A program made the position numbers and the translations under genes. Below, in pieces: positions 6,366 through 44,333 of a DNA stretch of 45,218 bases. Positions within the stretch are counted from its first letter, which is position 1. Every line of letters begins with the position of its first letter. The notes beneath the pieces were generated by a model that worked only from the letters and a program-made list of their open reading frames with translations, did no database searches and was not told the DNA's origin. The DNA is from a candidate division WS1 bacterium (GTDB lineage Bacteria; Armatimonadota; Zipacnadia; Zipacnadales; Zipacnadaceae), in the NCBI GenBank assembly GCA_012523355.1, contig JAAYIR010000045.1:1-45218 (forward strand), written 5' to 3'.

Positions 6366-6931
6366 GATGCGCCAGTTTCATCTTCCGAAGGCGGGCCGCC
6401 CAGCACAGCGTCGGGGTCCTCGCGTAACGGATCCGGGCTGAGCAGCGGGTTAGAGCGATCGTATTCGTAATCCTTGAGCAGCGGATAGCCGACGAAACCC
6501 TCCGGAAGCAGCAGGTGCTCGCAGTTAGGGTGACCGACGAAGGTCACCCCGAACATCTCCGCAACTTCCCGCTCCGGCCAGAAGGCGAGCTGCCACAGAC
6601 CGGTCACCGTGGGGACCTCGGCCTGCGCCCGGGGCAGGTCCACCTTCACCAACACCATCTCCGCGCCATAGCCCCGGCACAAGGCGTAGACCACCTGCAC
6701 GCGATCGCCCCAGTCCACGCCGCACAGATCCGTCAGGCGGGAGTAGGGCTCGGGCAATTCGTGGAGCCGGTTGAGCAGGGGCAGCAGGTTCTCCGGAGTG
6801 GTGAGCAACTCGGGCCGTCCGGCCCGCACGCAGCCACCGGTAGTCAAGTCACCCGCGATCTCCTGCAACTCGGCAGACAAGGGCTCCGGGCTCGACACCG
6901 AAGCTATCTGCTGCTCCTGACCCTCACTCAT
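6362..6931 (-). CDS. nuoC: NADH:quinone oxidoreductase subunit C
   Basis: [32 protein letters not shown]; 4-nt overlaps with both neighbours. Confidence 0.93.
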
Positions 6932-7548
6932 GGCAGTTCCCGCTTACGAAAGAAGTCCTCATGCTGGCGTTCGCCGTGGCCGATGGTGTCCGCGATTGAC
7001 TCGCGTCGCATGAGCTGGTGCAGTTTGCGGATCGCGTCTATGAACGACTCGGGGCGAGGCGGGCAACCCGGCACGTAGATGTCCACAGGTACCACGCGGT
7101 CCACGCCCCGGACCACGCTATAGGCGTGATGGTAAAAGCGGCCGCCGCTGATCGCGCAATTACCCACGGCGATGACGTACCGCGGCTCGGGCATCTGGTC
7201 ATACAGCCGACGCAACACATCAGCCATCTTCAGGGTGAGCGTTCCCGCGACCAGCATGGCGTCGGCCTGGCGAGGACTGCCTCGGAAGAAGACTCCAAAC
7301 CTATCCAGGTCGTAGCGACTGGCGCCAACAGCCATCATCTCAATGGCGCAGCAGGCGAGGCCGAACTGGAGTCCCCAAGTACTACAAGCGCGCCCGGTAT
7401 CGAGGACCTTGTCCACCACGTTAATGAAGGCCACCGAGAGCCCGCCCTCGTGATGAGTCTGGGCCCAGCGGCGCAGCGGTTGCTCAGGTGCCCGGGGTAG
7501 ATTGCCGGGCAGTTGGCGGAGGCGGTCCTCCAGCTCCCTCAGACCCAT
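6928..7548 (-). CDS. nuoB: NADH:quinone oxidoreductase subunit B
   Basis: [34 protein letters not shown]. Confidence 0.97.
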
Positions 7549-7916
7549 TCCAGATCCCCCTTCCGCCAGGCATACGCAAGTCCCAGCAAGAGAACAGCGA
7601 TGAAGATGCCCATCTCTACAGCAGGAAACAGATTCAGACCCGCCTGCAGGCTGAGGGACTTGTAGACTACTGCCCAGGGGACAAGGAATATCGCTTCAAT
7701 GTCGAAGAGCACGAAGATCAGCGCAATGACGTAGTAACGAACGAAGAACTTACTCCAGGCCTCCCCCCACGGGATGATGCCGCACTCGTACGTAAGCAGC
7801 TTATCCTCGTACTGGTCTACGGGCCGCAGCAGGTAGGCGATGAACAAGGCAACCGCAGCGAAAGCAAGCCCCAGCGCGACCAAGGTGGCCACTGGGCCGT
7901 AGTGGATGGCAGTCAT
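7539..7916 (-). CDS. nuoA: NADH:quinone oxidoreductase subunit A
   Basis: [30 protein letters not shown]; start trimmed to ATG 7916 after AGGGG RBS-like sequence. Confidence 0.95.
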
Positions 7917-8075
7917 GGATGTCCCCTGAGGTTCGAATAACGGCGCACTTCCGGTCTCGGCCAGCCACAAAAGAGGGGCTCTATCACGCGAGCCGAGCCC
8001 CGGGGATTGCCGTAATTTGTGCCTGCAAGCGCACTGATCACTGCCACGCGACCAAACTCTACAGGCAGTAGAGGT

Positions 8076-24818: not shown

Positions 24819-25550
24819 TCAACGGCCGCCAGGGCTTGGTTGGGAGTACCTCAGCACGGTGGTGCCAATCGTGATCTCATCCTCATCACGCAGCACCATA
24901 TCGGTGTCCACCTTGCGTCCGTTGAGCAGGGTGCCATTCGTTGACCCGCGATCACGCAAGACTCGCCGACCGTCCTGGAGGAAGATCACGGCATGCTGCA
25001 TGGAGGCGAACTGGTCGGGCAGGACAATCGCGTTGTAGTCGGCGCGCCCGATAGTGGCGGCTGCCAGCAGGGGGTACTCGTGCCCCACCGGTATTTCAGG
25101 CGTCTGAGAGTGGATGACCACCAACTTGGCGGTGTCAGTTCGTGCCTCGGTCTGTCGCGGCACCCGTCCGGACTGGAGGGGAGCTGCCGGGACAGCCGCA
25201 CTCGAGGGCGTGGGCTCCTCCTGCAGAGCCTCGCGCAGCGCCGGAGACATCCCCGCGGCCAATGAACCGGAAGTCTCTCCGCTTGAGGGCGTGGGCAGCG
25301 GCATCTGTGCTACCGGGGGCTGCGGCCGCGGCCTTGGCGGGGCGACTGCGACAGAGCCTGGACGCGGCTCCTGAGCAGATGTGGGCCCGGGGGCTGTCTC
25401 GCGGCGGTACACACGAGGGCCCTCCCGCACGGGAGCACGTTCTCCTTCCTGTACCATTCCCTCACGAATCAGTCCTCGGTATACCACAAACACAAAGAGG
25501 TATATGAGACCGACAAACACCCATTTCCCAGCCAGCAGAGCTAGTTCCAT
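24819..25550 (-). CDS. Membrane-anchored FHA domain protein (FhaB/FipA-like)
   Basis: N-terminal TM, Pro-rich linker, IGR...S..HA...GSTNGT FHA motif. Confidence 0.9.
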   Translation of the reverse strand: MELALLAGKWVFVGLIYLFVFVVYRGLIREGMVQEGERAPVREGPRVYRRETAPGPTSAQEPRPGSVAVAPPRPRPQPPVAQMPLPTPSSGETSGSLAAGMSPALREALQEEPTPSSAAVPAAPLQSGRVPRQTEARTDTAKLVVIHSQTPEIPVGHEYPLLAAATIGRADYNAIVLPDQFASMQHAVIFLQDGRRVLRDRGSTNGTLLNGRKVDTDMVLRDEDEITIGTTVLRYSQPSPGGR

Positions 25551-25555
25551 GATTT

Positions 25556-26224
25556 CTACCGCACGTAAGAGAACCTCATCTGGACCAACCCTATCTCAAT
25601 CAGCTCGCCGCCACTCAGCAGTATACGATCGACCTTACGGCCGTCAACAAAGGTGCCGTTACTACTGCCCAAGTCCTCGAGAAGGTAGCCGGAATACGTC
25701 CACACCAGACGCGCATGTCGGCGTGAGATGGCAGCGTCCTCCAAAGGGAGACAACACTCCTCTGACCGCCCGATATCGGCCTCGCCCACAAACTCCAGCA
25801 CGCGGGGCTCGATTCCTGAGATCACCTCGAGTCGTGCAGGAAGGGAGTGGTCTGCAAAGTCGGCCTCGACACGGACTCGACCAGTCGCCAATCTCTGGTC
25901 GGGCTCCAGCTTCACGGTAAGCACTGGACCCACGAGACAGCTACGTTCAGCAGCGAACTCCGAGAGATACTGGGATAGCTCGTTCTCCAGCTCTCGCGCC
26001 ATCATCCCCAACAACCTCAGGTCGTCCGGCGAAAGCTTAACACGGTACTCGTTGGGCGCAATAGTGCCCTCAAGCCCCTGCATCTGCCGGTGATCCATAG
26101 CACGCGCGAGTTCAGCGGCAAGCTCCAGAGGCTCGAGTTTACCCGGCAACAAATGCCCTACACTCTCAACTGCAGTGCGCAGTGTGTCCTCCAAACGCTC
26201 AAGAACGCGCCGAGCTGCCCCCAT
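25556..26224 (-). CDS. DUF3662 + FHA domain protein (FhaA-like)
   Basis: LEPLELAAELARAMD, APNEYRV; IGR...ISRRHA...GSSNGT. Confidence 0.9.
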   Translation of the reverse strand: MGAARRVLERLEDTLRTAVESVGHLLPGKLEPLELAAELARAMDHRQMQGLEGTIAPNEYRVKLSPDDLRLLGMMARELENELSQYLSEFAAERSCLVGPVLTVKLEPDQRLATGRVRVEADFADHSLPARLEVISGIEPRVLEFVGEADIGRSEECCLPLEDAAISRRHARLVWTYSGYLLEDLGSSNGTFVDGRKVDRILLSGGELIEIGLVQMRFSYVR

Positions 26225-27133: not shown

Positions 27134-27404
27134 TCTTCTCCGGTTCGGTGACCGGGGCCTCAACATGGTTCAAGCATAGCACAGTACCCAGAGGCGCCAC
27201 AAGCTCCAGTGCAAGTGAAGAGACCTACGATAGTCGCGAGTGTCCAGTGTGCCATGGCCGCTGACGGTCACTGAGAGGTACCCGCACGGGAGGTACACCA
27301 AGCCCAGACATCGAAGGGTGGCGATTGTGAGGGCCAAGCCTTCTTCGCTCCAGGCGCCTCAGGCTGAAGGAACCCCCTACCGAGAACGACAGTCTTCACA
27401 ACAG

Positions 27405-29369
27405 ATGGCATTTTGCGCCTTTGCCCGTAACTTACGGCGTAGCCGAGCCAGTCGGTGGCTGGCTGTGGTCGGCTGCGTTACGTTACTGTCGACCGGCGTG
27501 CATGCCAACCCGGAGGAAGACCTCGGGAGACTGATCGCACGCCAGTTTGAGCGACAGTACGGTCTCTGCCGAAGCCCCGTGCTGAATCGTTGGGTCACTC
27601 GGATCGGCGAAGAGATCGCTACTCAATCTCCGCGTCGCAACCTGACCTATCGCTTCGGGCTCGTGAATTCTGGCGAGGTGAACGCCTGGTCTCTTCCGGG
27701 CGGTTATGTCTACTGCACCACAGGACTACTGGGACAGGTGAATTCCGACGATGATCTGGCAGGGATCTTGGCTCACGAGCTCGCTCACTTGCAGAATCGC
27801 GACTTTCAACGGGTCCTCAAACGCCAAGGCTTGTTGGCAATCCTGGTCTTACTAGCCCAGAGCAACGGCCAAGAAGACCTAGGGACAGGGCTACAGTGGT
27901 ATCAGTTGTTCGACGGGCTGCGCCAGTCCCGGCGACATGAGGCTGCAGCGGACAACGTCGGTGTAGCGCTGTGCACCCGTTCGGGATATGACCCTGCGGG
28001 TCTCATCCACTTCCTCGACCAGATCGCCCAGGGGCAACATACATGGAGCTACTGGGAGACGCTTCTATCCACACATCCCCATCCGGCGCGACGCAAAGAG
28101 TGGGTCGCAAATGAGGTGTTGCGTAGTCTGACACCTGAGAGGAGAATTGCGTTAGCGCAGCGACTTGCTTCTCGCGCACGCTATCAACGAGCACTCCTGC
28201 ACCTCCAGCAAGCCCTGTCTCTCGATCCCACACGCGTAGACGGACACGTTGAGGCGGCACGCATATACCTGGCTCAGGGACGCCCTGCAAGCGCTGCCGA
28301 GCACGCGCGCCAAGCTCTGGAGTTGGCTCCTCACGAGGCCGAGGCAGCAAGCCTCTATCTGCAGTCAACTGGAGAAGTGTTACCCAGCCCCGCATACTGG
28401 TCCCCATCCGCGTCTCTGAGGTACAAGATGACGGCCCTCCAGGGGCAATTGGCTGCTCAAGAGCCGAACCGGCAGCGACTGCGTGGCCGGATTGCAGAGG
28501 AACTGCGCCGCTTGCACGGCAATGCGCGGTTTGCGCAGGCACTGGGAATTGCACAGGGCGTGACCACGGATGAGGCTGACTTCCTTCAGCTGGCACTGCT
28601 GGTGCAGGCGGCATTCGTTCTGCAGGAGATTGCCAACCTGGCCAGCCAGATCAACCAGATGCGTTGGCTAGAATATGATCTGCCGTCCGCCTTCGTGGAG
28701 GAAGCGTCGCGTTTGTTGCGGTCAGAAGCCCACTTTGGACGGGGGGCCGAATATGATCGCGCCGGAGAGCGGCTGGCGCGGAGTGAAGAATTGGCCCGGG
28801 ATGAACACCTGGAGGCCCTGGAGTCACTGGTGCACACTGCAGCAGAGTTGCGCCGGGTGGGGCAGCAAGTCGCACCGATATTCCTGGAATTGGTGGCGAG
28901 CGGCCGGGGGCGGCCACTGGGTCCCATGCTGGCCAGCCGAGGAGCCTTGATGGAGGCCCAGGTTCTGATGGCGCATGGAGACCTGCGTGAGGTTCGGCCG
29001 TCCACGAGCGCTGCGCTTCGCAAGCTGTGCGAGATAAGGGGCGGTGTCTACTCTGCTTCGCTGGCTCGGATGGGCGCTGGTGCGGGGACGCATCAGGCAC
29101 TGACATATGCAGAAGTACTGGCGCTGTGCTACGAGAACAACCCGGAGAAGGTCCTGGAGATCTGGAACAGAGAGGGCGACCTGGGGAGCGCGGCAGAGGC
29201 TCTTGCCACGAGCCCGATTACCAGCCCAGGGCCCCGGGAGGTCAAAGACGGAGGCAGGGAGAATGCCCTCTGGGGTGAGAGCGCGTACAGCGCCTATGTT
29301 CTCCTGCGGTTGAGCAGCCGGCGCTGCGCGGAAGAGCGAGTGGAAAGGTCTGAGGGGAGTCGGGAGTAG
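27405..29369 (+). CDS. M48 family metallopeptidase with TPR repeats
   Basis: VNAWSLPGG, ILAHELAH, EAAAD, GYDP, STHP; TPR motifs follow; start uncertain. Confidence 0.88.
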   Translation: MAFCAFARNLRRSRASRWLAVVGCVTLLSTGVHANPEEDLGRLIARQFERQYGLCRSPVLNRWVTRIGEEIATQSPRRNLTYRFGLVNSGEVNAWSLPGGYVYCTTGLLGQVNSDDDLAGILAHELAHLQNRDFQRVLKRQGLLAILVLLAQSNGQEDLGTGLQWYQLFDGLRQSRRHEAAADNVGVALCTRSGYDPAGLIHFLDQIAQGQHTWSYWETLLSTHPHPARRKEWVANEVLRSLTPERRIALAQRLASRARYQRALLHLQQALSLDPTRVDGHVEAARIYLAQGRPASAAEHARQALELAPHEAEAASLYLQSTGEVLPSPAYWSPSASLRYKMTALQGQLAAQEPNRQRLRGRIAEELRRLHGNARFAQALGIAQGVTTDEADFLQLALLVQAAFVLQEIANLASQINQMRWLEYDLPSAFVEEASRLLRSEAHFGRGAEYDRAGERLARSEELARDEHLEALESLVHTAAELRRVGQQVAPIFLELVASGRGRPLGPMLASRGALMEAQVLMAHGDLREVRPSTSAALRKLCEIRGGVYSASLARMGAGAGTHQALTYAEVLALCYENNPEKVLEIWNREGDLGSAAEALATSPITSPGPREVKDGGRENALWGESAYSAYVLLRLSSRRCAEERVERSEGSRE

Positions 29370-30188: not shown

Positions 30189-30437
30189 ATGTCCACGGAA
30201 GACAAAGCTTTGCGCCGTCGGGTGGAGCACGAGATAGCCCGGTACGATATTGATTTCTCTCTGGGGAACGTGGCCGTAGTCCACAGCGTGGTCTACCTCT
30301 CGGGCAAAGTGAAGAGAACCCTGACTCCCGAGGGTCGCAACGTAGACCTGCAGAAACTCATGACCACCATCGTAGACTCAATTCGCGTCATACCCGGCGT
30401 CGCTGATGTGGCCATGGATTGCGACCTGCTGGGCTGA
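30189..30437 (+). CDS. Small BON-like domain protein
   Basis: AGGAGG RBS; V.V...VVYLSGKV and IPGV..V pattern. Confidence 0.6.
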   Translation: MSTEDKALRRRVEHEIARYDIDFSLGNVAVVHSVVYLSGKVKRTLTPEGRNVDLQKLMTTIVDSIRVIPGVADVAMDCDLLG

Positions 30438-30502
30438 GAAGGACCTTCCTCTCGAGATCCCGGACTGTACTGTTGGCCGGAGTTGGCCAGCCACGGAGGC
30501 CC

Positions 30503-31345
30503 ATGAGACACCTTGCTACAGAATCCCTGGTCAGACCTCTAAGCGAGCTCTGCCAGAGGATCAGTTTCGAGTTGCCGAAGGATATTCGGCGCGCACTCAC
30601 TGAGGCTGCGCGCAAGGAAAGCAACCTGCGGGCGCAAGAGATTCTGCAGATATTGCTGGCCAATCTTGAGGTAGCAGAACGCGACCGCGTTCCTCTCTGC
30701 CAGGACACGGGCATGATCGTGGTGTGGGCCCAGATAGGTCAAGACCTTTGTCTGGAGGGGAGTCTGCGGGCGGCAGTTGACCAGGCGGTGGCCCAGACCT
30801 GCGAGGAAGCACGCCTGAGGCCCTCAATGCTGAGCCACCCACTGAACCGCGCGAGCAATACCGGAGACAACACTCCCGCCTTTATTCACCTCGAGTTGGT
30901 TCCCGGAGATCAGCTCACGCTGCATGTAGCCGCCAAGGGCGGCGGTAGTGAGAACATGAGTGCGGTCTGGATGATGTCCCCCAGCCAGGGCCGCGAAGGC
31001 CTCATTGAGGCAGTAGTGGGACGAGTACGGGAGGCAGGAGGACGCCCTTGTCCGCCGCTGGTGCTGGGTCTGGGAGTGGGCGGCAATTTCGAGACAGCTC
31101 CCCTACTGGCCAAGCAAGCCCTGTTCCGTTCTCTGGGTGATCGCTCACCGGACCCGGTGTTGGCAGACCTGGAAGCCGAGATTCTTGCACGAGTCAATGC
31201 CACAGGGATTGGCCCCCTGGGATTGGGGGGCGACACAACGGCTCTCGCCGTACATGCTGTGGCCGGGCCCTGCCATCTAGCCACCATGCCTGTCGCCCTC
31301 AACATGCAGTGCCATGCGGCTCGCCACGGAACACTGGTGATCTAA
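30503..31345 (+). CDS. Fe-S fumarate hydratase / tartrate dehydratase alpha subunit
   Basis: PLCQDTG, KGGGSEN, PCPP, GIGPLGLGG, CHAARH; GGAGG RBS. Confidence 0.93.
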   Translation: MRHLATESLVRPLSELCQRISFELPKDIRRALTEAARKESNLRAQEILQILLANLEVAERDRVPLCQDTGMIVVWAQIGQDLCLEGSLRAAVDQAVAQTCEEARLRPSMLSHPLNRASNTGDNTPAFIHLELVPGDQLTLHVAAKGGGSENMSAVWMMSPSQGREGLIEAVVGRVREAGGRPCPPLVLGLGVGGNFETAPLLAKQALFRSLGDRSPDPVLADLEAEILARVNATGIGPLGLGGDTTALAVHAVAGPCHLATMPVALNMQCHAARHGTLVI

Positions 31346-31346
31346 C

Positions 31347-31925
31347 GTGCAACATACAGAACCAGCGCCGGATATGAACGCCGCACGTCTGGACCTACCC
31401 CTTACAAGGGGGGCAGTCTTACAGTTGCGTGCCGGACAAGCGGCGCGCCTCTTTGGCCCGATGTACACGGCGCGGGACGCGGCCCACGCGCGCCTCCGCG
31501 AGGCGCTGCGCACCGGCGAGTCAGCGCCGTTTCCGCTGGCCGGGAGTACTATCTACTATTGCGGCCCTACTCCGGGCAGGCTGCCCGAAACGCTGGGCGC
31601 GGCTGGCCCCACCACCAGCTCACGCATGGATGCGTATGCCCCGGAGCTTTATGCCTCCGGTATTCTTGCCACCCTGGGCAAGGGAGAACGATCCCTGGCG
31701 GTGCGGGAGGCCTGCCGCAACTATGGCACGGTATATCTGGTAACGGTCGGTGGAGCGGGAGCGCTGTTAGGGAGCCGTGTGGTGGCCGCAGAGACCCTGG
31801 CCTACCCCGATCTCGGTCCCGAGGCCATTCGGCGGCTGATCGTGAAAGACTTTCCGGTCTGGGTAGCCTATGACGCGCATGGAGGCAGCATCTTCCCCGG
31901 AGATCTCCCGCTGGAGGCCGATTGA
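31347..31925 (+). CDS. Fe-S fumarate hydratase / tartrate dehydratase beta subunit
   Basis: TARDAAH, YYCGP, GPTTSSRMD, GKG, DLGPEAI; alternative ATG at 31374. Confidence 0.93.
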   Translation: MQHTEPAPDMNAARLDLPLTRGAVLQLRAGQAARLFGPMYTARDAAHARLREALRTGESAPFPLAGSTIYYCGPTPGRLPETLGAAGPTTSSRMDAYAPELYASGILATLGKGERSLAVREACRNYGTVYLVTVGGAGALLGSRVVAAETLAYPDLGPEAIRRLIVKDFPVWVAYDAHGGSIFPGDLPLEAD

Positions 31926-33434: not shown

Positions 33435-34307
33435 ATGGCCAAGCTCTGGGTCTTCCTCCACGTGCTTGTTCTGCTCGCTGTAATCGTCGTGTCTCTCGTC
33501 ATGATTGCCGCACACCCTAGCGGGGCTGCCGAACTCCCTGCGCTCAATGCCCCTGGTGACTTTCTGCAGTTCTGGCAAGAGGCCGACCTCTCGCTGGCAC
33601 AATGGTCACCCGACCTCACGCATATCCCTGGCTCTCAAGAGGTCGAGTTCACTGGGTTCGGCGGCCTGCGTTGTACCGCGCGGGTACGATTACCTCGCCA
33701 AGGACCACCCTATGCCGGGGGCGTATTGCACATCACCGCCACCGGACGCCCATCAGGACCCGTTCCAGAAGACGGCCTGGTGCATCTCTTCATCTCCTGG
33801 GACCCCTCTCGTCCTGAGGCCGCCTGGCAGCTAGACGCGGGCGATGACCCCCGAAGTTGCGACCTCTACCGCGCCTGCCTCTCAGCGCGCCAAGCGCTTT
33901 CGCTCCTCGCCGCGCTGCCCGGTCTCAGACCCGGGCGTATCGCCGCCATCGGGGAGGGAATCGGGGGCATGGAGGCCCTGGCGCTGGCCACGATGGATCC
34001 GGACCAGGTGGCCTGTGTGGTGGGAATCCTGCTGGAAGGACCGAACTCCCGCATGGTGGGACTAGATGCAGATACGCGGGCGGTTGCCAGCTATTTCGAC
34101 CCGGCGAACTTCGCGCGCTACGTTCATGCTCCTGTACTGCTACTCGGACCCGAGATGGGCTCAATGGAGAGCGCAGCGTCAGCCGGCTCGCGATGGGTGG
34201 CTGAGAAACTGGCTCACATCTCCTCCGGAAGGCCACTGCTGGCTACAGACCAGGCCAGCAAAGCTCAGCTCATCCCCGGTCCGCCCAGGGTCGAGTCGGA
34301 GTCCTGA
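33435..34307 (+). CDS. Exported acetyl xylan esterase (CE7)-like alpha/beta hydrolase, probably inactive
   Basis: EFTGFGG, RIAAIGEGIGG (elbow Ser replaced by Gly), SYFDPANFA..VHAPVL; N-terminal signal or anchor. Confidence 0.65.
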   Translation: MAKLWVFLHVLVLLAVIVVSLVMIAAHPSGAAELPALNAPGDFLQFWQEADLSLAQWSPDLTHIPGSQEVEFTGFGGLRCTARVRLPRQGPPYAGGVLHITATGRPSGPVPEDGLVHLFISWDPSRPEAAWQLDAGDDPRSCDLYRACLSARQALSLLAALPGLRPGRIAAIGEGIGGMEALALATMDPDQVACVVGILLEGPNSRMVGLDADTRAVASYFDPANFARYVHAPVLLLGPEMGSMESAASAGSRWVAEKLAHISSGRPLLATDQASKAQLIPGPPRVESES

Positions 34308-34456
34308 TATGCTCACCCACGACAGAGGCGGCCGGAGAGGGGCCGTCTCTCGCGGTTCCAGCATGACAAGTCCTCAGCGCCCGGCACAGGAACAAAGCCG
34401 GGCGCCAGCACGTCCTAGTGCCGTTTTCAAACGTGCTCTGAGCGTGTGCACTGGTC

Positions 34457-37400
34457 ATGCCAAAGGCGCCTCAATCGCTCCACAAGCTGGCTCTATGCGC
34501 TGCCGTGGTTTGTTGCCTGGCAGAGCTGACCCCTGCGCATGCCGATTTTCTCGATTCCATCGAGAAGGCCCTGGACCGTGCGGGACTGTTCCAGGGCCTC
34601 CAGATCAGTGGTCAGAACTCGTTTACCCTCCAGAGGAACTTTCTACAAGGCTCCCAGGCCAGCTTTGAGGGACAACGCTGGGATACGGGAGATCTTCTCC
34701 GGCAGAGCAGTATCCATCTGGAGGGGCCCATCTGGAAGGAGTTCGGCTTCCGGGCAGACATTTCTGATTCAGGGTATGGCCGCGCGTACACCAACTGGGT
34801 GGTCGGATATGTGGGGCATGACACCGCCCTATACTACGGCAACCTGAACGTTAGTCTGATGGGCAACCAGTTTGCCAGCTTCGGTCGCACGCTGCAGGGC
34901 TGGCAACTGGACCAACGGCTCCCCAACAACGGTTTGATGCGTGCCTTCTACTCCCACGAGAAGGGACATACGCAAAACCAGGCGTTTCTGGGAAACAACA
35001 CCGCCGGACCATACTTTCTCACCTATACCCCCATCATCGAAGGCTCACTGCGGGTGAAGGTAGACGAACGGGCGCAGGAGCTCGGCACCGACTACCGCGT
35101 GGATTACCAGAGCGGGGAACTCTGGTTTCAGCCTTTCAGCGGTCCACCCAAGATCATACCGAGCACCTCGACGATCTCAGTCAGCTATCAGTCGGCGGGC
35201 TATGGCAGTTCACCCAGCACTCTCTCGGGCGTCCGTGCGGAGATGCCCATCTTCAAACGAAGAGGGCTGGTGGGGGCAACCTTCTTGCGCCAACAACGCC
35301 CCCGGGCCGGCCAGGGCGATACTGCGGGCCATCAGGAGGACATTTATCAAGGTTCCGGGACCACAGGACCCTTTGATACGAACTACCGCCCCATTCTGGC
35401 CGACGGAACGACAGTGGTCTACAAGGGCCAGAGCCAGACCATTTCCACCGCTCTGGTGGTGCTGGTAGACAATGCCCTCCAGACCGAGGGTCTGGACTAT
35501 GACTCATATCGGGACATCGGAAGGATCATCTTCCGCCGGCTTGTTCCGCCCACAGCGCTGGTGAGAATCCAGTACTACTATAGCCTCGGCGCCGATGTCA
35601 GCTCGCCAAACCTACAGGTCACCGGCCTGGATCTTTCGTACCGTCTTTCCCCTGAGATCACTCTGGCTACCCAGTTTGCACAGAGCGAGGGCGGAGGTGA
35701 CGGTGGGGGCGGATCAGCACTGTCGGGCCTGCTCACCTTCAGCCGCCCCGGGCTGCAATTCTCGGCTGAGTACCTCGACATGAGCCCGAGCTTCCGGTTT
35801 ATGGATTCGTCTGGCTTCTACACACAGCAGTCAGGGTTCGGCACCAACCTCTATTGGCGACCCAGCAAGTACCTGTCTCTGGAGGACTCCTTCTCAAGCA
35901 TGCGCAGTGCAACGGGGCTGTCGTTTGGATACAGCGGCTACGGAGGGGACAGTTACCTGCCCTCTGTTTACTCCGCAGTGGCGACGCAACAGGCCACTGA
36001 GCCAGACGAGGGCCTGAGTGTTGACACGTTACGCCACTCGCTGAGTGTCCGGCACGAGCGTCCCGGCTGGCCCACAGTGATGGCGGGCCGGAGCTTCATG
36101 TCAAACAGCGCGCTGCGCACCGGCAACAGCAGTTACCAGACCGACACTCTCCAGATCGCTCATGATTTTGGCCGCCGGCTGCGGGGCCAGGCCCAGTGGC
36201 AGGTCAATACTCAAGAATACTCAGCACCAACCACCTCAACCTCCGCACTGTTGTCGGGCAGCCGTTCTCACATGAACCAATACGCCCTGACCTGGATACC
36301 CAGCGATACACTCTCCTTCTCGGCGAACCTGAGCACTACTCGCACCGCTGGCAGAGGGGCTGCCGCCCTCGCCTCCAACCAGGCCTCCAGCTCAGACTCG
36401 GTTCAGTTCTCAGCTCGTTGGGCCCCCAGCGACCGGCTCAGCCTGAATCTGGATCACACCAGCAATGTCTCGCGAGGCGCTGTCACCAGCGGACTATACA
36501 CCTACCCGGCCGCCTGGCCTCATGCCCTGACTGTGCAGGAGACAGCAGCTCTGGCCCGGGACCGGCTTCGCGTTCTTCAAGGTGACAACACCACCGAGGT
36601 GGTCCAATTGCAGGACGATACGACCAACCTGGCCCTGACCTACCAGGTCTCGAATGCACTGAGCTGTGGACTCAGCCTGGGCCGACATAAATACAATACC
36701 AGTGGAGGCATCGGCTATCTGGCTAACAGCCTGCAAGACACGCGCAACCTGTTCTTCACGTGGCGGTTTTCCCCAGCGATGTCCTTGACCAGCAGTTTCG
36801 GTACTGATCGCCTTAACTACCTGGATGAGGGGCGCGGAGAGGTCACGAACAACACCTACTCCGCCTCGGTGAACTACCAGCCGAGCGGAAGCCTCTGGGG
36901 CACGGGGATAACCTTCAGCCGCCAGACAGGGAGCAGTCCCACCTATATCAACTTCGGTAATCGGCAGGGCTACGTCATGGTGGACACCGATCTCACTGAC
37001 GTGAGCGGGCAGGTTCGCTACCAACTCGCGGAGAAGGCCAGCGCATTCGCCAACATGAATCTATCCGACTTCGTGAGTGGCTTCTCCGCCTTCAACAAGC
37101 AGACAGCCGAGGTCGGCCTGGAGCACCAACTCAGCAACACCAGTCGCCTGGCCTTCAGCTATCGGCTGATCCGCAACTTGGCCGGCACGCCGAGTTCTCC
37201 TCTCTACGCGGGGATGAGTACCGGCGATCAGAACTACCAGGCTCACACTTTTGGCTTCACGTTGACCACCTCCTTTGGCAGCGGGGGTTCCGGCGAAGGC
37301 TTCAACGTACCCTCCGGAGGCTACGGAAGCAGTTACACCGGTGCGGAAGCCTACGGCACCTTCGGCGGGTTGGGGACTAGTGGCGCAGCAACGTTTGGCG

Positions 37401-37702
37401 GGTATCAGACGAGCCCGGGCTTCTCCACCACCAGTGGAGTTTTCGCCAACGCCGGGCTCGGGACACCTGGATTTGCCTCGGGGCGCGGTGACGACGCTGG
37501 CTTTTCTGCGAGATCGTGGAGTCCGGAGCAGGGTCGCGACCACGTACCGGCTTCCAGCCAACCCCCGGCGTTGGACTGGAGCGCAGCGGGGAGCGGAGAG
37601 TCAAGGGCAGAGGCAAGTGCTCCTCCAACTTCGTCCACCCTGGATACCTGGGAAGAAGGCCTATCCAGATGGGATTTCGGCACGCCCGGGGAGTGGTGGT
37701 AG
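34457..37702 (+). CDS. Large outer-membrane beta-barrel-like protein with SprA-like motifs
   Basis: Signal peptide (AHA-D); many amphipathic strands ending in Y/W-x-P/L-S; two G.DY..(D)Y..G.(I/L).F modules; Gly/Ser-rich tail. Confidence 0.7.
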   Translation: MPKAPQSLHKLALCAAVVCCLAELTPAHADFLDSIEKALDRAGLFQGLQISGQNSFTLQRNFLQGSQASFEGQRWDTGDLLRQSSIHLEGPIWKEFGFRADISDSGYGRAYTNWVVGYVGHDTALYYGNLNVSLMGNQFASFGRTLQGWQLDQRLPNNGLMRAFYSHEKGHTQNQAFLGNNTAGPYFLTYTPIIEGSLRVKVDERAQELGTDYRVDYQSGELWFQPFSGPPKIIPSTSTISVSYQSAGYGSSPSTLSGVRAEMPIFKRRGLVGATFLRQQRPRAGQGDTAGHQEDIYQGSGTTGPFDTNYRPILADGTTVVYKGQSQTISTALVVLVDNALQTEGLDYDSYRDIGRIIFRRLVPPTALVRIQYYYSLGADVSSPNLQVTGLDLSYRLSPEITLATQFAQSEGGGDGGGGSALSGLLTFSRPGLQFSAEYLDMSPSFRFMDSSGFYTQQSGFGTNLYWRPSKYLSLEDSFSSMRSATGLSFGYSGYGGDSYLPSVYSAVATQQATEPDEGLSVDTLRHSLSVRHERPGWPTVMAGRSFMSNSALRTGNSSYQTDTLQIAHDFGRRLRGQAQWQVNTQEYSAPTTSTSALLSGSRSHMNQYALTWIPSDTLSFSANLSTTRTAGRGAAALASNQASSSDSVQFSARWAPSDRLSLNLDHTSNVSRGAVTSGLYTYPAAWPHALTVQETAALARDRLRVLQGDNTTEVVQLQDDTTNLALTYQVSNALSCGLSLGRHKYNTSGGIGYLANSLQDTRNLFFTWRFSPAMSLTSSFGTDRLNYLDEGRGEVTNNTYSASVNYQPSGSLWGTGITFSRQTGSSPTYINFGNRQGYVMVDTDLTDVSGQVRYQLAEKASAFANMNLSDFVSGFSAFNKQTAEVGLEHQLSNTSRLAFSYRLIRNLAGTPSSPLYAGMSTGDQNYQAHTFGFTLTTSFGSGGSGEGFNVPSGGYGSSYTGAEAYGTFGGLGTSGAATFGGYQTSPGFSTTSGVFANAGLGTPGFASGRGDDAGFSARSWSPEQGRDHVPASSQPPALDWSAAGSGESRAEASAPPTSSTLDTWEEGLSRWDFGTPGEWW

Positions 37703-37705
37703 GAG

Positions 37706-39925
37706 ATGCGTATGGCAACTCTGCGAGGTTTCTCTCTTCTGGCGCTGAGCGTGGTGCTGGGCAGCGCAGCGTGGCCCGCGCTGGGGGCGTCACCTTTCCG
37801 CAATATCAACAACACCCCGTTTCGCACGCGCTGCAATGGGCCGCAGGGAGCCCTCCTGGCACCGGCGGAGCAGGCCGGCATACAACCGATGGCGGCACCC
37901 TCTGTAGTTGCTTCCCAACACAACGCCGCAGGTTTGGGCCGCGCCCAGCGTGCACTGCGGCTCCTGCAACAGATGTGGGTCAAGAGCCCGCGGGCAGAAG
38001 TGCGTTTCCCCCGGCTGATGTATCGCATGGCCAACGGGCAATTGGTGCTACCTGCCCTGGCGAGTGCCATGCAGACCCCCACAGCGGTCGGCGACCCGGA
38101 CAACAATCTCACTTTTGAGTTCCAGGGCTTTACGGCTCCGGACCAGCAAGCTCTGGCGGCCTACCTCCAGAACGCCTACCCCAAGATGCGTCAGGTGTAT
38201 GGCCCTCCGGCCTTCAACCAGACTGTCACCATTATCCAAGATAGCTCCATCCAAGCGGTACAGGGCGGGGTCTATGACGTCTCCTCCCACCAGATCCGCA
38301 TCCCGCCGCTCTCCGGCAACTTTGAGGAAGACACCTTCTCCCTGTGCATGTTAGTGCTGCACGCCTTCCGCGGTGAGACAGCGCTCTTCTACGATGTGTG
38401 GGAAAGTGGTATGGCAGGTGCTGCCGCCACCGTCGTGCAGACCACCTCAGGTGTCTCCCCCGGGTATAACCCTGTAGATCCAGGCCCCTTCTATGCCTGG
38501 TCCGTATATGAGGCACAGAATCAGCCGGCGTTAGCCAATAGCACGTTCTATCCTGCCTCCGGATTTGCGGGCATGCTCTACTTCCGCATCTGCATGGCCC
38601 GAACCGTCTGGCTCAAGTGCTGGGCCGAGAACAATGACTTCTTCCGCGCCTTCAACCAAGCCTACTATGCTGCCTACAGCTCTACACTCCCGGGGGACGT
38701 GCCAGCCCTGAAGGACGTCGGCGCTCAGGTACTGCCGCAGGTCGAGGGGATGTCCTGGTATGACTGGTACCAACGCCAGTATATCCTGGATACCTCCGTG
38801 CACGGAGGGCTTAAGCTCTATACCTGGAATGCGCCAACTGTGGACGGCGTAATCCTGCTGGTTGACCACTACCTGACGAGTGCCGATGGTGACGAGTCTC
38901 CCCGGGGAGGCACCGGCAGACTCACCTACTGGAACTATGATTTCTCGCTCAGCCTGTACGTAGAACCCAGCGATACCACGGTTACGGTGCCCGCCTCCGG
39001 TCCCGGAGCAGGAGAAGGCGCCCTCTTCCCCAAGTTCACGAGCATAGGCGGTCCACAGCGGATAACGGTTCAGCTTGACCTCAACGGCATGCGGGGACAA
39101 TACCCCTACCCGTACGGGGTGCGAGGAGACCAGTCCGGGGAGAATGATTTCTACGGCGCGGTCATGGAGGGCCCTTCCGCGACGTTGGACATCTCAGGGG
39201 CCTATACCAAGAGCGGCTTGACAGCGAATCGGGGAGTGTTCGGAACCTCCCTCAGTGGATCGCGACTTTCGCCCAGTCAGATCGTTGTCCAAGTAGCTAA
39301 CCCACAAGGTCAGATGGTCACCCGGACCATTAACGTCGGCTGGGACTCCTACGTCACGTTTCTCCCCGGAGGAGGACAGGCGGGTCTGACCCATACGTGG
39401 GAGAAGCAGGGGAATGGCATAATTATGATGTCCCTGCCGGTTGAGCCACTGCAGACCAACGCGGCCGTCGTTCTGGGGATTGATGCGCGCAAGCTGCTGT
39501 TGGCCCGCTGGGACCCCACCGCTCCGCCCGATGGTGCCTACCGGATTTGGCCTACCACGGAACCCTTCCAGCCAGGACGCGCGTACTGGCTCAAGTTGCC
39601 TGCGGACCTGACAGTGAATGCGGAGGGGCTGTTGCCGCCGCCGGGTCAGGATTATACGGTACCCCTGTCCCTGGGGTGGAACATGGTGGGCAGCCCGCGC
39701 CAGACTCCGGTCCTGGTTACAGACTTGAGGGTACAGACCGGCACCGACGAGACGATCTCCTTCGCTGAAGCTATCAATCGGGGACTGGTGCAGAGGGGTT
39801 TCTATGCGTATACTCCCGGGACCGGGTACCAACTGGCAGACACCCTGGACCCCTTTGATGGCTATTGGCTCCGCTGCCTGGTCCCCGGCGGCGCACGTCT
39901 CATCTTCCCGGCGGTGAGCTCATGA
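37706..39925 (+). CDS. Secreted protein with degenerate zincin-like domain and beta-rich C-terminal domain
   Basis: Signal peptide; GGVYD...MLVLHAF...WESGMA; C-terminal PGRAYWLK...LSLGWNMVGSP...PFDGYWLR. Confidence 0.7.
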   Translation: MRMATLRGFSLLALSVVLGSAAWPALGASPFRNINNTPFRTRCNGPQGALLAPAEQAGIQPMAAPSVVASQHNAAGLGRAQRALRLLQQMWVKSPRAEVRFPRLMYRMANGQLVLPALASAMQTPTAVGDPDNNLTFEFQGFTAPDQQALAAYLQNAYPKMRQVYGPPAFNQTVTIIQDSSIQAVQGGVYDVSSHQIRIPPLSGNFEEDTFSLCMLVLHAFRGETALFYDVWESGMAGAAATVVQTTSGVSPGYNPVDPGPFYAWSVYEAQNQPALANSTFYPASGFAGMLYFRICMARTVWLKCWAENNDFFRAFNQAYYAAYSSTLPGDVPALKDVGAQVLPQVEGMSWYDWYQRQYILDTSVHGGLKLYTWNAPTVDGVILLVDHYLTSADGDESPRGGTGRLTYWNYDFSLSLYVEPSDTTVTVPASGPGAGEGALFPKFTSIGGPQRITVQLDLNGMRGQYPYPYGVRGDQSGENDFYGAVMEGPSATLDISGAYTKSGLTANRGVFGTSLSGSRLSPSQIVVQVANPQGQMVTRTINVGWDSYVTFLPGGGQAGLTHTWEKQGNGIIMMSLPVEPLQTNAAVVLGIDARKLLLARWDPTAPPDGAYRIWPTTEPFQPGRAYWLKLPADLTVNAEGLLPPPGQDYTVPLSLGWNMVGSPRQTPVLVTDLRVQTGTDETISFAEAINRGLVQRGFYAYTPGTGYQLADTLDPFDGYWLRCLVPGGARLIFPAVSS

Positions 39926-41151
39926 GCCGGGGACCGTTCATGCGTGGGAATCCGAGACTTGCGATGCTCCTCCTCGTGGTAGCCGGAGCGGGAGTGGCGG
40001 GTTGCGGGGGAATAGGCTCAGGCGATGTCCAGACCCCGAACACGGCCACCGTGGTGGTGGAGACAGTGGAGCAGGGCACTACGACCCTGCTCCCCGTCGC
40101 AGCCAACATCGTGGTGGGGGGCATTCGCGGAACGGTAGATATGACTCAGCACTGGGTCATCCTCAGTGGGATTCCCCTGGATTCTGACAACCAACAACCC
40201 CTGACCGCGACTGCACCGGGGTATGTCACGGTCACGCAGACCGTTCAACTGAGCCCGTTTTCCTATACTACTGTGACCGTGGAAATGGCTCGGGCGGACA
40301 TCAATCAGACAGCAACCGTACAAGGCAGAGTCACCAACGGCGATAGCGGTGCGGGGGTCGCCAATGCTCTTGTCACCTTCATTCCTTCAGTCGGGAGTCC
40401 CGTATCGGGCTATACCGACAGCACGGGCCTGTACGTCATTGGAGGGATCGTCGCCGGGCCGGCAGAGGTGACCGTCAAAGCCATGGGCTATCTGGAAGGC
40501 ACGGCCACCACCGCCCTGATGGACGACGCCAGCGGCACTAATGATCCGGTGAATATCGCTCTGGTCAGCGGCAGCACCAAGGTGACCGTGACCGGCCGGG
40601 TGCTGCGTATGGGCCCGGAGACTCCCGTCGGAGGGGCCGAGGTCACCCTCGCCCAACTGAATCCTGTTACCACCGACGCACAAGGGAACTTCACCGTGAC
40701 CGAAGTCCCGGTCGGTCAGCAGACTGTTGTGGCGACGGCTCCGGGATACGACACGAGGACTCTCACGGCTGAAATCACCCCTACCATGGGGCCACTGATC
40801 ATCTACCTGCCGCCAACCTCGCCCGGACCGCCGCCTGCTCCCTACACCATATCCGGCGTCGTGACACTCATGGGAAAGAGTGACAACTCCGGCGCAACAG
40901 TTACGGCCACAGACCAGGCCACGGGGCAGATGGCGGGTTCCAGCACAACCGATGCAGCCGGGAATTACTACCTGTTCGTCCCGCCGGGCACTTACCGTCT
41001 CACGGTTAGCTATGGCACACACTCTGTGAGCCAGAGCGTGACTTTGCTGGGCGGAGGGCGTACACTAACGGGTGTGAACTTTACACTGGCAGTCACCCCA
41101 ACCGTATCGGGACTCTCAGTCAGCCAAAGAATAAGGGTCGTGGGGAAGTGA
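39922..41151 (+). CDS. Lipoprotein with about four carboxypeptidase-regulatory-like (Ig/transthyretin-like) domains
   Basis: Lipobox VAGC; repeated V.GRV...GA.V...TD..G.Y/F...P.G...A.GY units; ATGA overlap with upstream gene. Confidence 0.85.
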   Translation: MSRGPFMRGNPRLAMLLLVVAGAGVAGCGGIGSGDVQTPNTATVVVETVEQGTTTLLPVAANIVVGGIRGTVDMTQHWVILSGIPLDSDNQQPLTATAPGYVTVTQTVQLSPFSYTTVTVEMARADINQTATVQGRVTNGDSGAGVANALVTFIPSVGSPVSGYTDSTGLYVIGGIVAGPAEVTVKAMGYLEGTATTALMDDASGTNDPVNIALVSGSTKVTVTGRVLRMGPETPVGGAEVTLAQLNPVTTDAQGNFTVTEVPVGQQTVVATAPGYDTRTLTAEITPTMGPLIIYLPPTSPGPPPAPYTISGVVTLMGKSDNSGATVTATDQATGQMAGSSTTDAAGNYYLFVPPGTYRLTVSYGTHSVSQSVTLLGGGRTLTGVNFTLAVTPTVSGLSVSQRIRVVGK

Positions 41152-42272
41152 AGGAATACGCTGCCGGTATGAAAGCGTTGTTGCTCCTGGTAGCCTGGTT
41201 GTTGGTCTCGGGAAGCGGAGCCGTCCAGCCGGCAACTGCTCCGACGGCGGAAGCGCTCCCCAACAGCTGCACCGCCGGCGAGGAGCACGCGTCGGTATTT
41301 ACTCCGTACGCGCTCGCTAGCGGACGTCCGGCCTGGGCACCACTTGAACTGATCTGGGGGCAACTGCAGTACCGATCCGCTTTGGAGAGCATTCTCCTCG
41401 ACGGGGACTCCACTGCCCGCAACCGAGCCGCGCTGGCTCTGGGTCTGATAGGCGCGCAGGAATCGCGGGAGAGGCTGGCAACGACGATGACCCAGGCCGA
41501 GAACGATATCCGGCCCTGGGCCGGCCTGGCGCTGTGCTACCTGGGCGACCCACGCGGCGCGAATGAAGCACGCCGTCTCTTGACCACGGGTGAGCCTTGG
41601 GTTCGCTACTACGCCGTGGTGGGGCTCTGGCGCCTGGATTCTCCTGAGGCTCGTAGTCTCCTCAAGAAGTCCTACCCCACACAGGAGCCTTTCGTCCAAG
41701 CCATAATCTCCCAGGCTCTCCACAGCGCTCCCTGGCAGCCACCCAGTCGAGCGCAAACCCGCCAAACGACTTTCACACTCACACCCAATCAGTTGTGGAC
41801 CGAGATGGCCAGTCAGCTGGATCTCATCTGCGATTACTGGTGGCATCAGGGAGATTATGAGCAGTGCTGCCGGATCATGGAGACCGCCATCTTCTTCTGC
41901 CCGCAACGCGTGGACCTCTACGACAACATTGCGTGGTTGCAGTGGAGCCTGGGCCATGATGAGGTGGCGGTGAGAACCCTGAACCGCGGTTTATCCAACA
42001 ACCCGGGGAGTTGGCACGCGCACTTCAATCTGGGCTGGCACTATTTCAACACGAAGCGCTACGCCGAGGCTCTCCCCCACCTCCAGGCAGCGGCCACAGA
42101 TTCGAATGAGTGGTGTGAACCGATGCATCTCTATGCCCACACGCTGGAACGTTTGAGCCGCGGGCAAGAGGCCCTGCGCGTCTGGGAGGACTGCGTCGAG
42201 CGGTTCCCGGAGGATGTGGTGGGGAAGCGCAACCTCGAGCGCGTACGCCAGCGGTATTCCGGTTCGCAGTAA
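41148..42272 (+). CDS. Secreted HEAT-repeat + TPR protein
   Basis: Signal peptide; ARNRAALALGLIG and VRYYAVVGLWRL HEAT-like units; several TPRs; GTGA overlap. Confidence 0.8.
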   Translation: MKEYAAGMKALLLLVAWLLVSGSGAVQPATAPTAEALPNSCTAGEEHASVFTPYALASGRPAWAPLELIWGQLQYRSALESILLDGDSTARNRAALALGLIGAQESRERLATTMTQAENDIRPWAGLALCYLGDPRGANEARRLLTTGEPWVRYYAVVGLWRLDSPEARSLLKKSYPTQEPFVQAIISQALHSAPWQPPSRAQTRQTTFTLTPNQLWTEMASQLDLICDYWWHQGDYEQCCRIMETAIFFCPQRVDLYDNIAWLQWSLGHDEVAVRTLNRGLSNNPGSWHAHFNLGWHYFNTKRYAEALPHLQAAATDSNEWCEPMHLYAHTLERLSRGQEALRVWEDCVERFPEDVVGKRNLERVRQRYSGSQ

Positions 42273-42377: not shown

Positions 42378-43499
42378 TCAGGGAGACTGCGGCGGGACAC
42401 GCCTCGCTGGAGTCGAGGGCGGCGCAGAAGGCGTTTCTGAACCGCGGGGGGCTGTGCGAGGCCCTGGAGGCGCCGGCGTTACTGTGGGGCCTTCGGTTTC
42501 GGTGGCCGAGTCGTCTTCCTCGTTCGCGGGAGTCTCTGTAACCGTCTCGGCGGAGGGCTCGCCAGTGTTGGTACGCGTGCGCCCGGGTGCCACGGTGACA
42601 GTGACGGTTATCGTGCCGGATGTCACTGGCCGGATCCCGGTTGGCAAGTCCACCTCCGTAGTGTAGGTCCTCGTCCCCCGCAAGTCAGAGATGTTGATTC
42701 TCTTGGTGGGCACGCGCGCCAGTCGTTCGAGCACAGCTGCCTCTCCGCTGACAGTCACCTCGGGCGGCTCAACCCGCACTGCAGCCACGTAGAACCCTTC
42801 TGGCGGAGACCCGACCCGGGGCTCGATTCGCACTGTACGGCTGGGGGCCTTGGTCACAGGAATAGTGACTGTCCCTTCCACCGGGTCTACCCTGATTCCT
42901 CCACGAGCCTCTCCGCGTTCGTTCACCGCCCGCAACTGGGCGTTGACTTCCATGCTACTGCTAGTGCCCGAGACATCTACGTGAGCCACAATATGATGCA
43001 CGTCTGCCAGCAGTGAGTCTGGCCCTCGAACCTTCGCTTCCGCTGGCCGCACCTGGGGGCTGCTGATGACGTACCCCTCGGCCGGGCGGCCCTTCGTCTT
43101 GACCACCACCGGCAGAACGACCTCAGTCAGCTTGTCCAATGTGACTTGGGCCTCGCGGATGCTCATGTTGACCACATCCACGCCAACCCTCGAGGGCTCT
43201 GCAACTAACGATACCTTGTGCTCACCAGCCGAGAGACCGCTCAGATCGCCCAGAAGCTGAATCTCACCAGGCTTAATCTCCCGCACAATACGCCGCAGTC
43301 CCCGTACGGTGATCCTCGCCGTGTCAGGGCTCTTGCGCAGCAGCATCAGACCGTCCGGGATGTTCACCAGCAGCACCTGAACCTGCACCTCCCGTGTCTC
43401 GGGAGGGTTCTCGGCAATCGTCACGAAGCCCCAGAGGACTATCGCCACGATCAGCGACACTAGCTCAAGCCCCAAATTGTGTCTGATTGCACTTATCAC
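42378..43499 (-). CDS. cdaR: CdaR (YbbR-domain) regulator of diadenylate cyclase
   Basis: SLIVAIVLWGFV TM, three YbbR-like repeats (V.G...L), downstream of cdaA. Confidence 0.88.
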   Translation of the reverse strand: MISAIRHNLGLELVSLIVAIVLWGFVTIAENPPETREVQVQVLLVNIPDGLMLLRKSPDTARITVRGLRRIVREIKPGEIQLLGDLSGLSAGEHKVSLVAEPSRVGVDVVNMSIREAQVTLDKLTEVVLPVVVKTKGRPAEGYVISSPQVRPAEAKVRGPDSLLADVHHIVAHVDVSGTSSSMEVNAQLRAVNERGEARGGIRVDPVEGTVTIPVTKAPSRTVRIEPRVGSPPEGFYVAAVRVEPPEVTVSGEAAVLERLARVPTKRINISDLRGTRTYTTEVDLPTGIRPVTSGTITVTVTVAPGRTRTNTGEPSAETVTETPANEEDDSATETEGPTVTPAPPGPRTAPRGSETPSAPPSTPARRVPPQSP

Positions 43500-43520
43500 T
43501 GAAGCTGGATCCTCTGCACG

Positions 43521-44333
43521 TCACTTGCGCCAGAAGAAGCGCTTCTCCTGCAGCTGCGATTCGAACATCTCCATCAGTCGCTCGGTGAGTTGCGGGCGCT
43601 GCAGCGCAGGGCTCAGGGTGCCATTGACGGCCAGCGAGACATTGCCGGTCTCTTCGGATATCACGATTACCGCGGCATCCGTCCGCTCTGCCAGTCCCAG
43701 AGCCGCACGGTGACGCATTCCGGTTTCGGTAGACAGCCCAGGCCGCTCGGAGTGGGGCAGGACACAGGAGGCGGCCAGAAGTTCGGCGCCCCGTATGACG
43801 ACGGCACCGTCATGAAGTGGCGTGCGCGGGTTGAATATGGTCATCAGGAGCTCGACTGACACACGACCGTTGATCGCCTTGCCAGTACGGATGATATCCG
43901 ACAGCCGCTGCGAGCGCTCCATCACGATCAGTGCGCCGTGGCCTTTCTCCGCCATACGAAAGGCTGCCTCCACTACACTCGTGATAACATCCGGTACGCT
44001 TCCCCCCCCTACCGCGCTGAAACGCAACCCAAGGAAGTGCCCTCTACCCAGGTGTTCTAACGCCATTCGCAACTCTGGCTGGAATATGACCACGAGAGCG
44101 ATGAGGGCGACCGGAACGAGTGCACGCAAGATGTAGTTCAGAGTGGGCAACCAGGAGGAGATGAGGAAGATGAGCAGGAGGAGTCCCAGTCCACGGAACA
44201 GCGGTACCGCCCGTGTTCCTCGCATCAAGAGAAGGAGCCGGTAGACGAGATAGGCAACAATCAGGATGTCCAGCGCGTCCAGCCACCGGAGATTGTGCAG
44301 GATCTGCCGGAATGTCTCGAGAAGTTCATTCAT
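43521..44333 (-). CDS. cdaA: Membrane diadenylate cyclase CdaA
   Basis: Three TM, VIFQPELR, PLHDGA, GMRHRAA, ISEETG. Confidence 0.96.
   Translation of the reverse strand: MNELLETFRQILHNLRWLDALDILIVAYLVYRLLLLMRGTRAVPLFRGLGLLLLIFLISSWLPTLNYILRALVPVALIALVVIFQPELRMALEHLGRGHFLGLRFSAVGGGSVPDVITSVVEAAFRMAEKGHGALIVMERSQRLSDIIRTGKAINGRVSVELLMTIFNPRTPLHDGAVVIRGAELLAASCVLPHSERPGLSTETGMRHRAALGLAERTDAAVIVISEETGNVSLAVNGTLSPALQRPQLTERLMEMFESQLQEKRFFWRK

Follow-up and report, generated by a model that had tools for sequence, protein, structure and literature searches.

A conserved Armatimonadota gene cluster built on a predicted giant outer-membrane barrel is a candidate exit for an Lpt-type lipid bridge

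What would a predicted giant outer-membrane β-barrel carry in an Armatimonadota bacterium, and with which partners? The stretch of DNA analysed here (the window; 45,218 nucleotides (nt), GenBank contig JAAYIR010000045.1 of a candidate division WS1 bacterium) is contig C173 of a genome of 3.24 Mb and 90% completeness, and its relatives in public records are named Armatimonadota or ‘Candidatus Zipacnadia’. It encodes the barrel, g1, followed on the forward strand by g2, g3 and g4 (Table 1). An earlier note, made from the letters of the DNA, read these genes as one tightly coupled four-gene unit and as a candidate secretion or surface-assembly system related to SprA, translocon of the T9SS (type IX secretion system). 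Our comparisons show that g1-g2-g3 is an unnamed, Armatimonadota-specific conserved cluster. Gene order, a gap in LptD and the housekeeping-like distribution of g1 make the outer-membrane terminus of a trans-envelope lipid bridge of the Lpt type, replacing LptD/LptE, the best single explanation of this cluster; we hold it tentatively, at a little under an even chance.

Conservation was scored in a synteny set of 69 g1 loci, with counts limited to loci with room for the gene in question (at least 2.5, 5.5 and 8.5 kb for g2, g3 and lptC/lptA, respectively). g2 comes after g1 in 45 of 48 loci, and 36 of 38 contain g3. The first three genes of the proposed unit thus co-occur across the phylum, but g4 does not, being found in only 5 of 32 loci. 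In 22 of 32 loci the cluster is extended by genes for a small CarboxypepD_reg lipoprotein, an LptC-like protein and an LptA/OstA protein, never together with g4. Pfam confirmed LptC and LptD_N/OstA_2 in three loci (L033, L034 and L069), and the order g1, g2 C-terminal domain, LptC recurs in several families with all three on one contig (G176, G104, G131, G001, G110, G004 and G024, among others). In the window's genome the corresponding trio, a 199-aa lipoprotein, LptC′ (226 aa) and LptA′ (269 aa), sits by itself on contig C310. Its LptC′ scores above the TIGR04409 cut-off, and a weak match (E 6.8e-4) links LptA′ to the N-terminal part of an LptD model. Inspection of LptC neighbourhoods in five genomes lacking g1 revealed no g1-like open reading frame (ORF) there.

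The g1 family itself is present in 211 of the 301 phylum genomes, mostly as a single copy. Families f11, f13, f15 and f29 lack g1 of the type found by profile A1, and the wider profile A5 recovered distant homologues of ~2000–2300 aa in 18 of 26 f11 genomes. No Pfam domain was matched by g1 or by any of 125 word-indexed homologues. A search of 1.84 billion proteins returned 354 representative g1 clusters at E≤0.001. The named ones among the 125 are all from Armatimonadota except two, whose labels read Bacteroidota and just ‘bacterium’, and names in two cluster look-ups were limited to Armatimonadota and Fervidibacterota. Distant homologues also occur in metagenome-assembled genomes of Fimbriimonadaceae, to go by record titles. 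For g1 the Atlas returned unnamed clusters of Armatimonadota and Rifleibacteriota only; a SprA cluster scored 0.84 and is taken as a lead only. Literature searches covering SprA, type IX secretion and LptD in Armatimonadota revealed no paper on the g1 family.

The connection to lipid export follows from what stands next to g1 and from what the phylum appears to lack. LpxC was detected in 293 of 301 phylum genomes and LptC in 199. The LptD family PF04453 matched three of 301 genomes, all weakly and only one above the cut-off (E. coli and Caulobacter controls positive), and LptD_2 (PF19838) matched none of 151 (B. thetaiotaomicron control positive). The window's genome has no match to either model, and g1 gave no such hit at E≤1. 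LptD/E were not found in diderm Terrabacteria according to PMC5007114 and PMC8871954, and insertion of lipopolysaccharide (LPS) without a recognisable LptD/LptE in these bacteria is a documented gap there; the g1 cluster offers a concrete, testable candidate for LPS exit in one phylum. The secretion system suggested earlier keeps its likeness to SprA, but the lptC/lptA-like genes that follow in most related loci, in a phylum with no LptD barrel family detected, speak for lipid (LPS) export no less than for protein secretion.

The likeness to the LptD–LptE complex and its LptC–LptA bridge lies in a large predicted barrel of the outer membrane whose gene stands with that of a lipoprotein and, in 22 of 32 related loci, directly upstream of lptC-/lptA-like jellyroll genes, in a phylum that makes lipid A. 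Unlike LptD, g1 is accompanied by a 739-aa pseudo-peptidase and by a four-domain lipoprotein with no relation to LptE, and the LptC/LptA linked to it form a divergent second pair. The standard operon, lptC-lptA-lptB-lptF/G, is encoded on contig C89, apart from the g1-linked type of pair; BLASTP found no similarity between the C310 and C89 pairs (E >0.08), and 25–26 related loci match only the C310 pair. The C89 operon (within locus L093, C89:14000-23552) is preceded by an ORF (5887-7953, minus strand) of 688 aa that lacks a Pfam match and whose many hydrophobic segments, judged by eye, are likely to span the membrane. A DUF3084 protein comes after the operon.

In the proposed Lpt-type exit, lipid would be passed along the jellyroll proteins LptC′ and LptA′ to the g1 barrel and would leave through it. 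An uncapped g1 would be a very wide hole; since its barrel has two small inserts and no cap, the globular, co-conserved g2 is the best candidate for a filler or cap. From the inner membrane, g3 would span the periplasm with its four transthyretin-like domains, while g4 (HEAT/TPR) may be a later periplasmic accessory of a lineage whose lptC′/lptA′ moved to another contig.

The structural basis for g1 is an AlphaFold2 model built on an alignment of 55 homologues (predicted local distance difference test score, pLDDT, 72.6; predicted template modelling score, pTM, 0.62). Between aa 49 and 941 it contains 38 long strand segments, a count read from the DSSP string of this pTM 0.62 model without coordinates, which is in itself a point against an Lpt-type exit; two segments are possibly one kinked strand, and ~36–38 strands are predicted in all. 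The LptD barrel has 26, and SprA forms a single-chain barrel of 36. Only a helix (31–42) precedes the first barrel strand of g1, and LptD differs further in carrying an N-terminal OstA/LptD_N jellyroll and matching PF04453/PF19838. The model shows two small inserted modules and no cap. The first comprises short strands at 199–223 between barrel strands, and the second short strands at 318–359 with invariant V335, D338, G355, R356 and F359; both fall within the approximate ranges given earlier for two SprA-like motifs. From residue 950 onwards pLDDT is below 50. The tail of ~135 aa after the last barrel strand is Gly/Ser-rich and ends in WW in 16 of the 55 aligned homologues, and homologue tails have similar Trp- and acid-rich ends (WW, RWWQWYE, DDMRDV).

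Foldseek returned only outer-membrane barrels for the model (MtrB, Deinococcus SlpA, LptD; template modelling score, TM, 0.17–0.39). Two other barrel types were considered and rejected for g1. The absence of any Pfam match includes the TonB plug, POTRA, the LptD domain and SLH, so the earlier remark that no TonB box or POTRA could be recognised holds at the level of Pfam; a TonB-dependent or SusCD-like reading was rejected for want of a plug domain, and an OmpM/SlpA-like tether for want of an SLH domain.

Is g1 then a relative of SprA? A structural search against representatives places SprA/Sov first (PDB 6h3i_A, Z 18.7, 5.6 Å over 521 residues; 8gl6_A, Z 18.7, 629 residues; 8gl8_A, Z 16.1, 650 residues), the superpositions spanning 5.6–7.5 Å, g1 model residues 43–940 and chain residues 133–2401. 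The next match, MtrB, aligns 453 residues at 13 Å, and no other barrel aligns more. As SprA Z-scores exceed those of unrelated barrels by <1, the likeness rests on aligned length and root-mean-square deviation. SprA was absent among the first 50 rows of Foldseek, a comparison put forward in the earlier note; the description of g1 as a predicted barrel resembling SprA is nevertheless upheld by the model and by the ranking in the structural search. A profile of the 55 homologues run against PDB sequences found neither SprA nor LptD at E≤1, and phmmer with g1 residues 185–385 against proteins of 1893–5000 aa gave no match at E≤0.01.

At the sequence level the shared motif is real but small. NCBIfam TIGR04189 aligns g1 residues 191–280, which enclose the first module, to model positions 602–687 of 2319 (E 3e-5; 21.4 bits against a cut-off of 200), and this is the sole match in the genome in a six-frame search (23.3 bits). 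Among 44 g1 homologues chosen for scanning from the word-indexed set and the cluster search, 30 are matched, nearly all at model positions ~595–690 (best E 3.4e-21, 74 bits); one match, at positions 130–249, is in line with N-terminal strands. Phage tail-tube and distal-tail models are matched by this module as well. Judged from these alignments, the module shared by g1 and SprA is a common small fold, and g1, as modelled, is SprA-like in fold and size yet outside the SprA family as NCBI defines it. At 1081 aa against 2319 model positions, g1 lacks the large extra domains of SprA and occurs outside Bacteroidota. A 2026 preprint (10.64898/2026.03.07.710327) calls SprA the largest known barrel; g1 would be a second family of SprA-sized single-chain barrels. 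Distant g1 homologues of ~2100 aa in f11 genomes (L103:10695-17081, minus strand; L104:3743-10012, plus strand) carry DUF11 and SdrD-like inserts, an expanded form of SprA length that has no TIGR04189 match and is followed by further DUF11 proteins.

No Pfam family was assigned to g2 and no peptidase Pfam family to any of 45 orthologues. In the AlphaFold2 model (pLDDT 86.5), residues ~30–365 superpose on M1 aminopeptidases (Z 13.7–11.9), M30 lugdulysin (11.5) and thermolysin (9.9), with TFIID chains 6hqa_A and 5fur_I also among the structural matches. As modelled, g2 has the fold of the thermolysin/M1 aminopeptidase (gluzincin) group, to which the inactive TAF2 is related, and it keeps the ‘ESG’ third-ligand motif (E233 invariant). 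Neither the g2 sequence nor the orthologue consensus contains the HExxH zinc motif; residues 208–213 read EDTFSL. With HExxH missing and no peptidase Pfam match, g2 is probably a binding module and not an enzyme, to judge from the modelled fold.

Most g2 orthologues are ~1000 aa long and end in a FlgD_ig-type domain that is missing from the window's own g2. The same conserved 95-aa domain closes seven further large ORFs in this genome (660–2419 aa; Table 1) and no more than these, among them two subtilases, a beta-helix protein and a 2419-aa Ig/fn3 protein, with three lying close together on C129. One of the seven passes TIGR04183 (T9SS type A C-terminal domain; 26.4 against 23 bits) and two more fall below the cut-off. 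Across the phylum the domain is found in 246 of 301 genomes, and one genome can have as many as 16 scored matches. Family f29 has neither g1 (profile A1) nor the domain.

A minimal SprA-related protein translocon would account for much of this. It would export or display proteins with a C-terminal Ig-like sorting domain, g2 being its first or dedicated substrate or its cap, and the adjoining lpt-like genes would be fellow envelope genes or a supply of lipid anchors. SprA is the closest solved structure to g1, TIGR04189 recurs in most scanned homologues, and the T9SS-like C-terminal domain is carried by most g2 orthologues as well as by the seven ORFs. We nonetheless consider this explanation unlikely, though a serious rival. 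The g1 score stays far below the SprA cut-off, the module is shared with phage tail models, and SprA barely outscores unrelated barrels. The window's g2 lacks the C-terminal domain, and the phyletic pattern is mixed: f11 (25/27) and f15 (3/3) have the domain without A1-type g1, and in five f17 genomes the single ORF with the domain lies away from g1. T9SS loci are not known to be linked to lpt-like genes. Nor did GldL/PorL or GldM/PorM match anywhere in this 90%-complete genome, in agreement with the earlier statement that no other T9SS gene was recognised, although the control searches were silent too. Were it correct, a SprA-type pore would exist outside Bacteroidota.

A combination of the two, in which a SprA-type giant barrel and an Lpt-type jellyroll bridge form one machine linking LPS export and type 9-like display, seems to us improbable. 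Such a machine would let a Lol-less diderm move LPS together with C-terminal-domain proteins or lipoproteins, g2 first, to its surface.

The lipoprotein g3 is matched by Pfam PF13620 in four stretches (E 1e-32; 112.8 bits against a cut-off of 32.3), and G27, C28 and G29 of its lipobox are invariant in 14 orthologues. LolA was found in none of nine genomes of the window's family, a null result that accords with the review PMC11784454; read together, these suggest that g3 is probably retained at the inner membrane and unable to reach the outer one. A related scheme is a second Lpt-like bridge with its own giant pore and a non-LPS cargo, either another glycolipid or, in this Lol-less diderm, lipoproteins such as g3 and its small neighbour. 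LptC/LptA occur as two separate pairs, of which the non-operon one alone is linked to g1; the cluster includes two lipoprotein genes; LolA was not found in the nine genomes; and PMC11784454 discusses Lpt as a possible lipoprotein route. Direct evidence for any of these cargoes is lacking, and four jellyroll proteins forming one long bridge would be the simpler view. We regard the second bridge as quite unlikely.

A structural or general-diffusion complex of the outer membrane (a large porin, a surface-layer (S-layer) component or an envelope anchor), with proximity to lpt genes reflecting envelope-gene clustering, has little probability in our estimate. The large barrel SlpA of Deinococcus, likewise a Terrabacterial diderm, is among the best Foldseek rows, distant g1 homologues give weak porin Pfam hits, and g3-type domains weakly match an anammox S-layer model. 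Against these stand the lack of an SLH or other wall-binding domain in g1 and the poor porin that an uncapped barrel of this size would make; strict three-gene conservation and translational coupling suggest a defined machine.

Several observations weigh against the Lpt-type exit. Its link to Lpt is gene order only, and this order is broken in the window's lineage, where g1 is on C173 and the trio on C310. Because the g1-linked LptC/LptA are the second pair and dissimilar to the operon pair on C89, the linked bridge may carry a cargo other than LPS. Nor do all LPS makers have g1: family f29 has it in 0/15 genomes with profile A1 and in 1/15 with A5 though LpxC is present in 14/15, and f13 has g1 in 0/7 (profile A1 only) with LpxC in 6/7. 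g1 itself shows neither an OstA jellyroll nor an LptD family match. Its best structural match is a protein translocon (SprA), and LptD aligns poorly (TM 0.17–0.32) and is not among the 50 structural-search rows listed. Finally, Pfam LptD models may miss divergent LptDs: Synechococcus was positive for LpxC and LptC and for neither LptD model.

The packing of the four genes was borne out by the ORFs and by direct reads of the junctions. g1 and g2 are separated by 3 nt (TGG TGG TAG GAG ATG), g2 and g3 share an ATGA overlap (TCATGA), and g3 and g4 a GTGA overlap (AAGTGA). Alternative starts exist for g2 (ATG 37712; database record P0265 gives 737 aa) and for g4 (ATG 41169, with AAGGAA just 5′), and the tight packing holds with either choice. 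Signal-like N-terminal segments in g1, g2 and g4 and the lipobox of g3 (..VAGC GG) were recognised by eye. g4 is matched by Pfam HEAT_2 (1.2e-11) and TPR_2 (4.8e-12).

Table 1 Features of the g1 cluster (window positions) and ORFs ending in the FlgD_ig-type domain (contig:positions)
Feature	Position	Strand	Description
g1	34457..37702	+	1081-aa predicted giant outer-membrane beta-barrel; signal-like N-terminus; strands ~aa 49-941
g1 inserted module 1	35042..35128	+	aa 196-224, GSLRVKVD..GTDYRVDYQSGELWF
g1 inserted module 2	35453..35533	+	aa 333-359, LVVLVDN..GLDYDSYRDIGRIIF; repeat of module 1 motif
g1 C-terminal tail	37292..37699	+	aa 946-1081; Gly/Ser/Ala/Thr-rich, predicted disordered, Trp-Trp end
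g2	37706..39925	+	739-aa exported protein; predicted thermolysin/M1-like domain without HExxH, ~aa 30-365, then beta-sandwich domains
g3	39922..41151	+	lipoprotein, 409 aa counted from ATG; four transthyretin-like (CarboxypepD_reg) domains
g4	41148..42272	+	374 aa; HEAT + TPR; signal-like N-terminus; lineage-specific addition
FlgD_ig-type domain ORF	C129:13040-18121		
FlgD_ig-type domain ORF	C129:21361-24723		
FlgD_ig-type domain ORF	C129:24750-27539		
FlgD_ig-type domain ORF	C269:1586-4939		
FlgD_ig-type domain ORF	C269:5023-8406		
FlgD_ig-type domain ORF	C192:36-7295		
FlgD_ig-type domain ORF	C34:19692-21674		

The surroundings of the cluster contain several further genes. Upstream, 150 nt from g1, lies a 290-aa ORF (33435-34307, plus strand) that has a hydrophobic segment at its N-terminus and belongs to no Pfam family, and a GC-rich inverted repeat was noticed by eye between this gene and g1 (~34326-34350). 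The 290-aa gene was rejected as a member of the unit, as it was matched in 2 of 69 loci. Downstream, a pair encoding CdaA (cyclic di-AMP synthase) and a YbbR-domain protein (42378-44333, minus strand) converges on the end of g4, a pairing also seen after g4 in the closest relatives (L003, L005, L010, L019 and L022). Elsewhere in the window, positions 24819-26224 (minus strand) and 27240-29369 (plus strand) hold two FHA-domain proteins, of which one carries an FhaA N-terminal domain, together with a fusion of M48 peptidase and TPR repeats (709 aa), and a split class I fumarase is encoded at 30419-31925.

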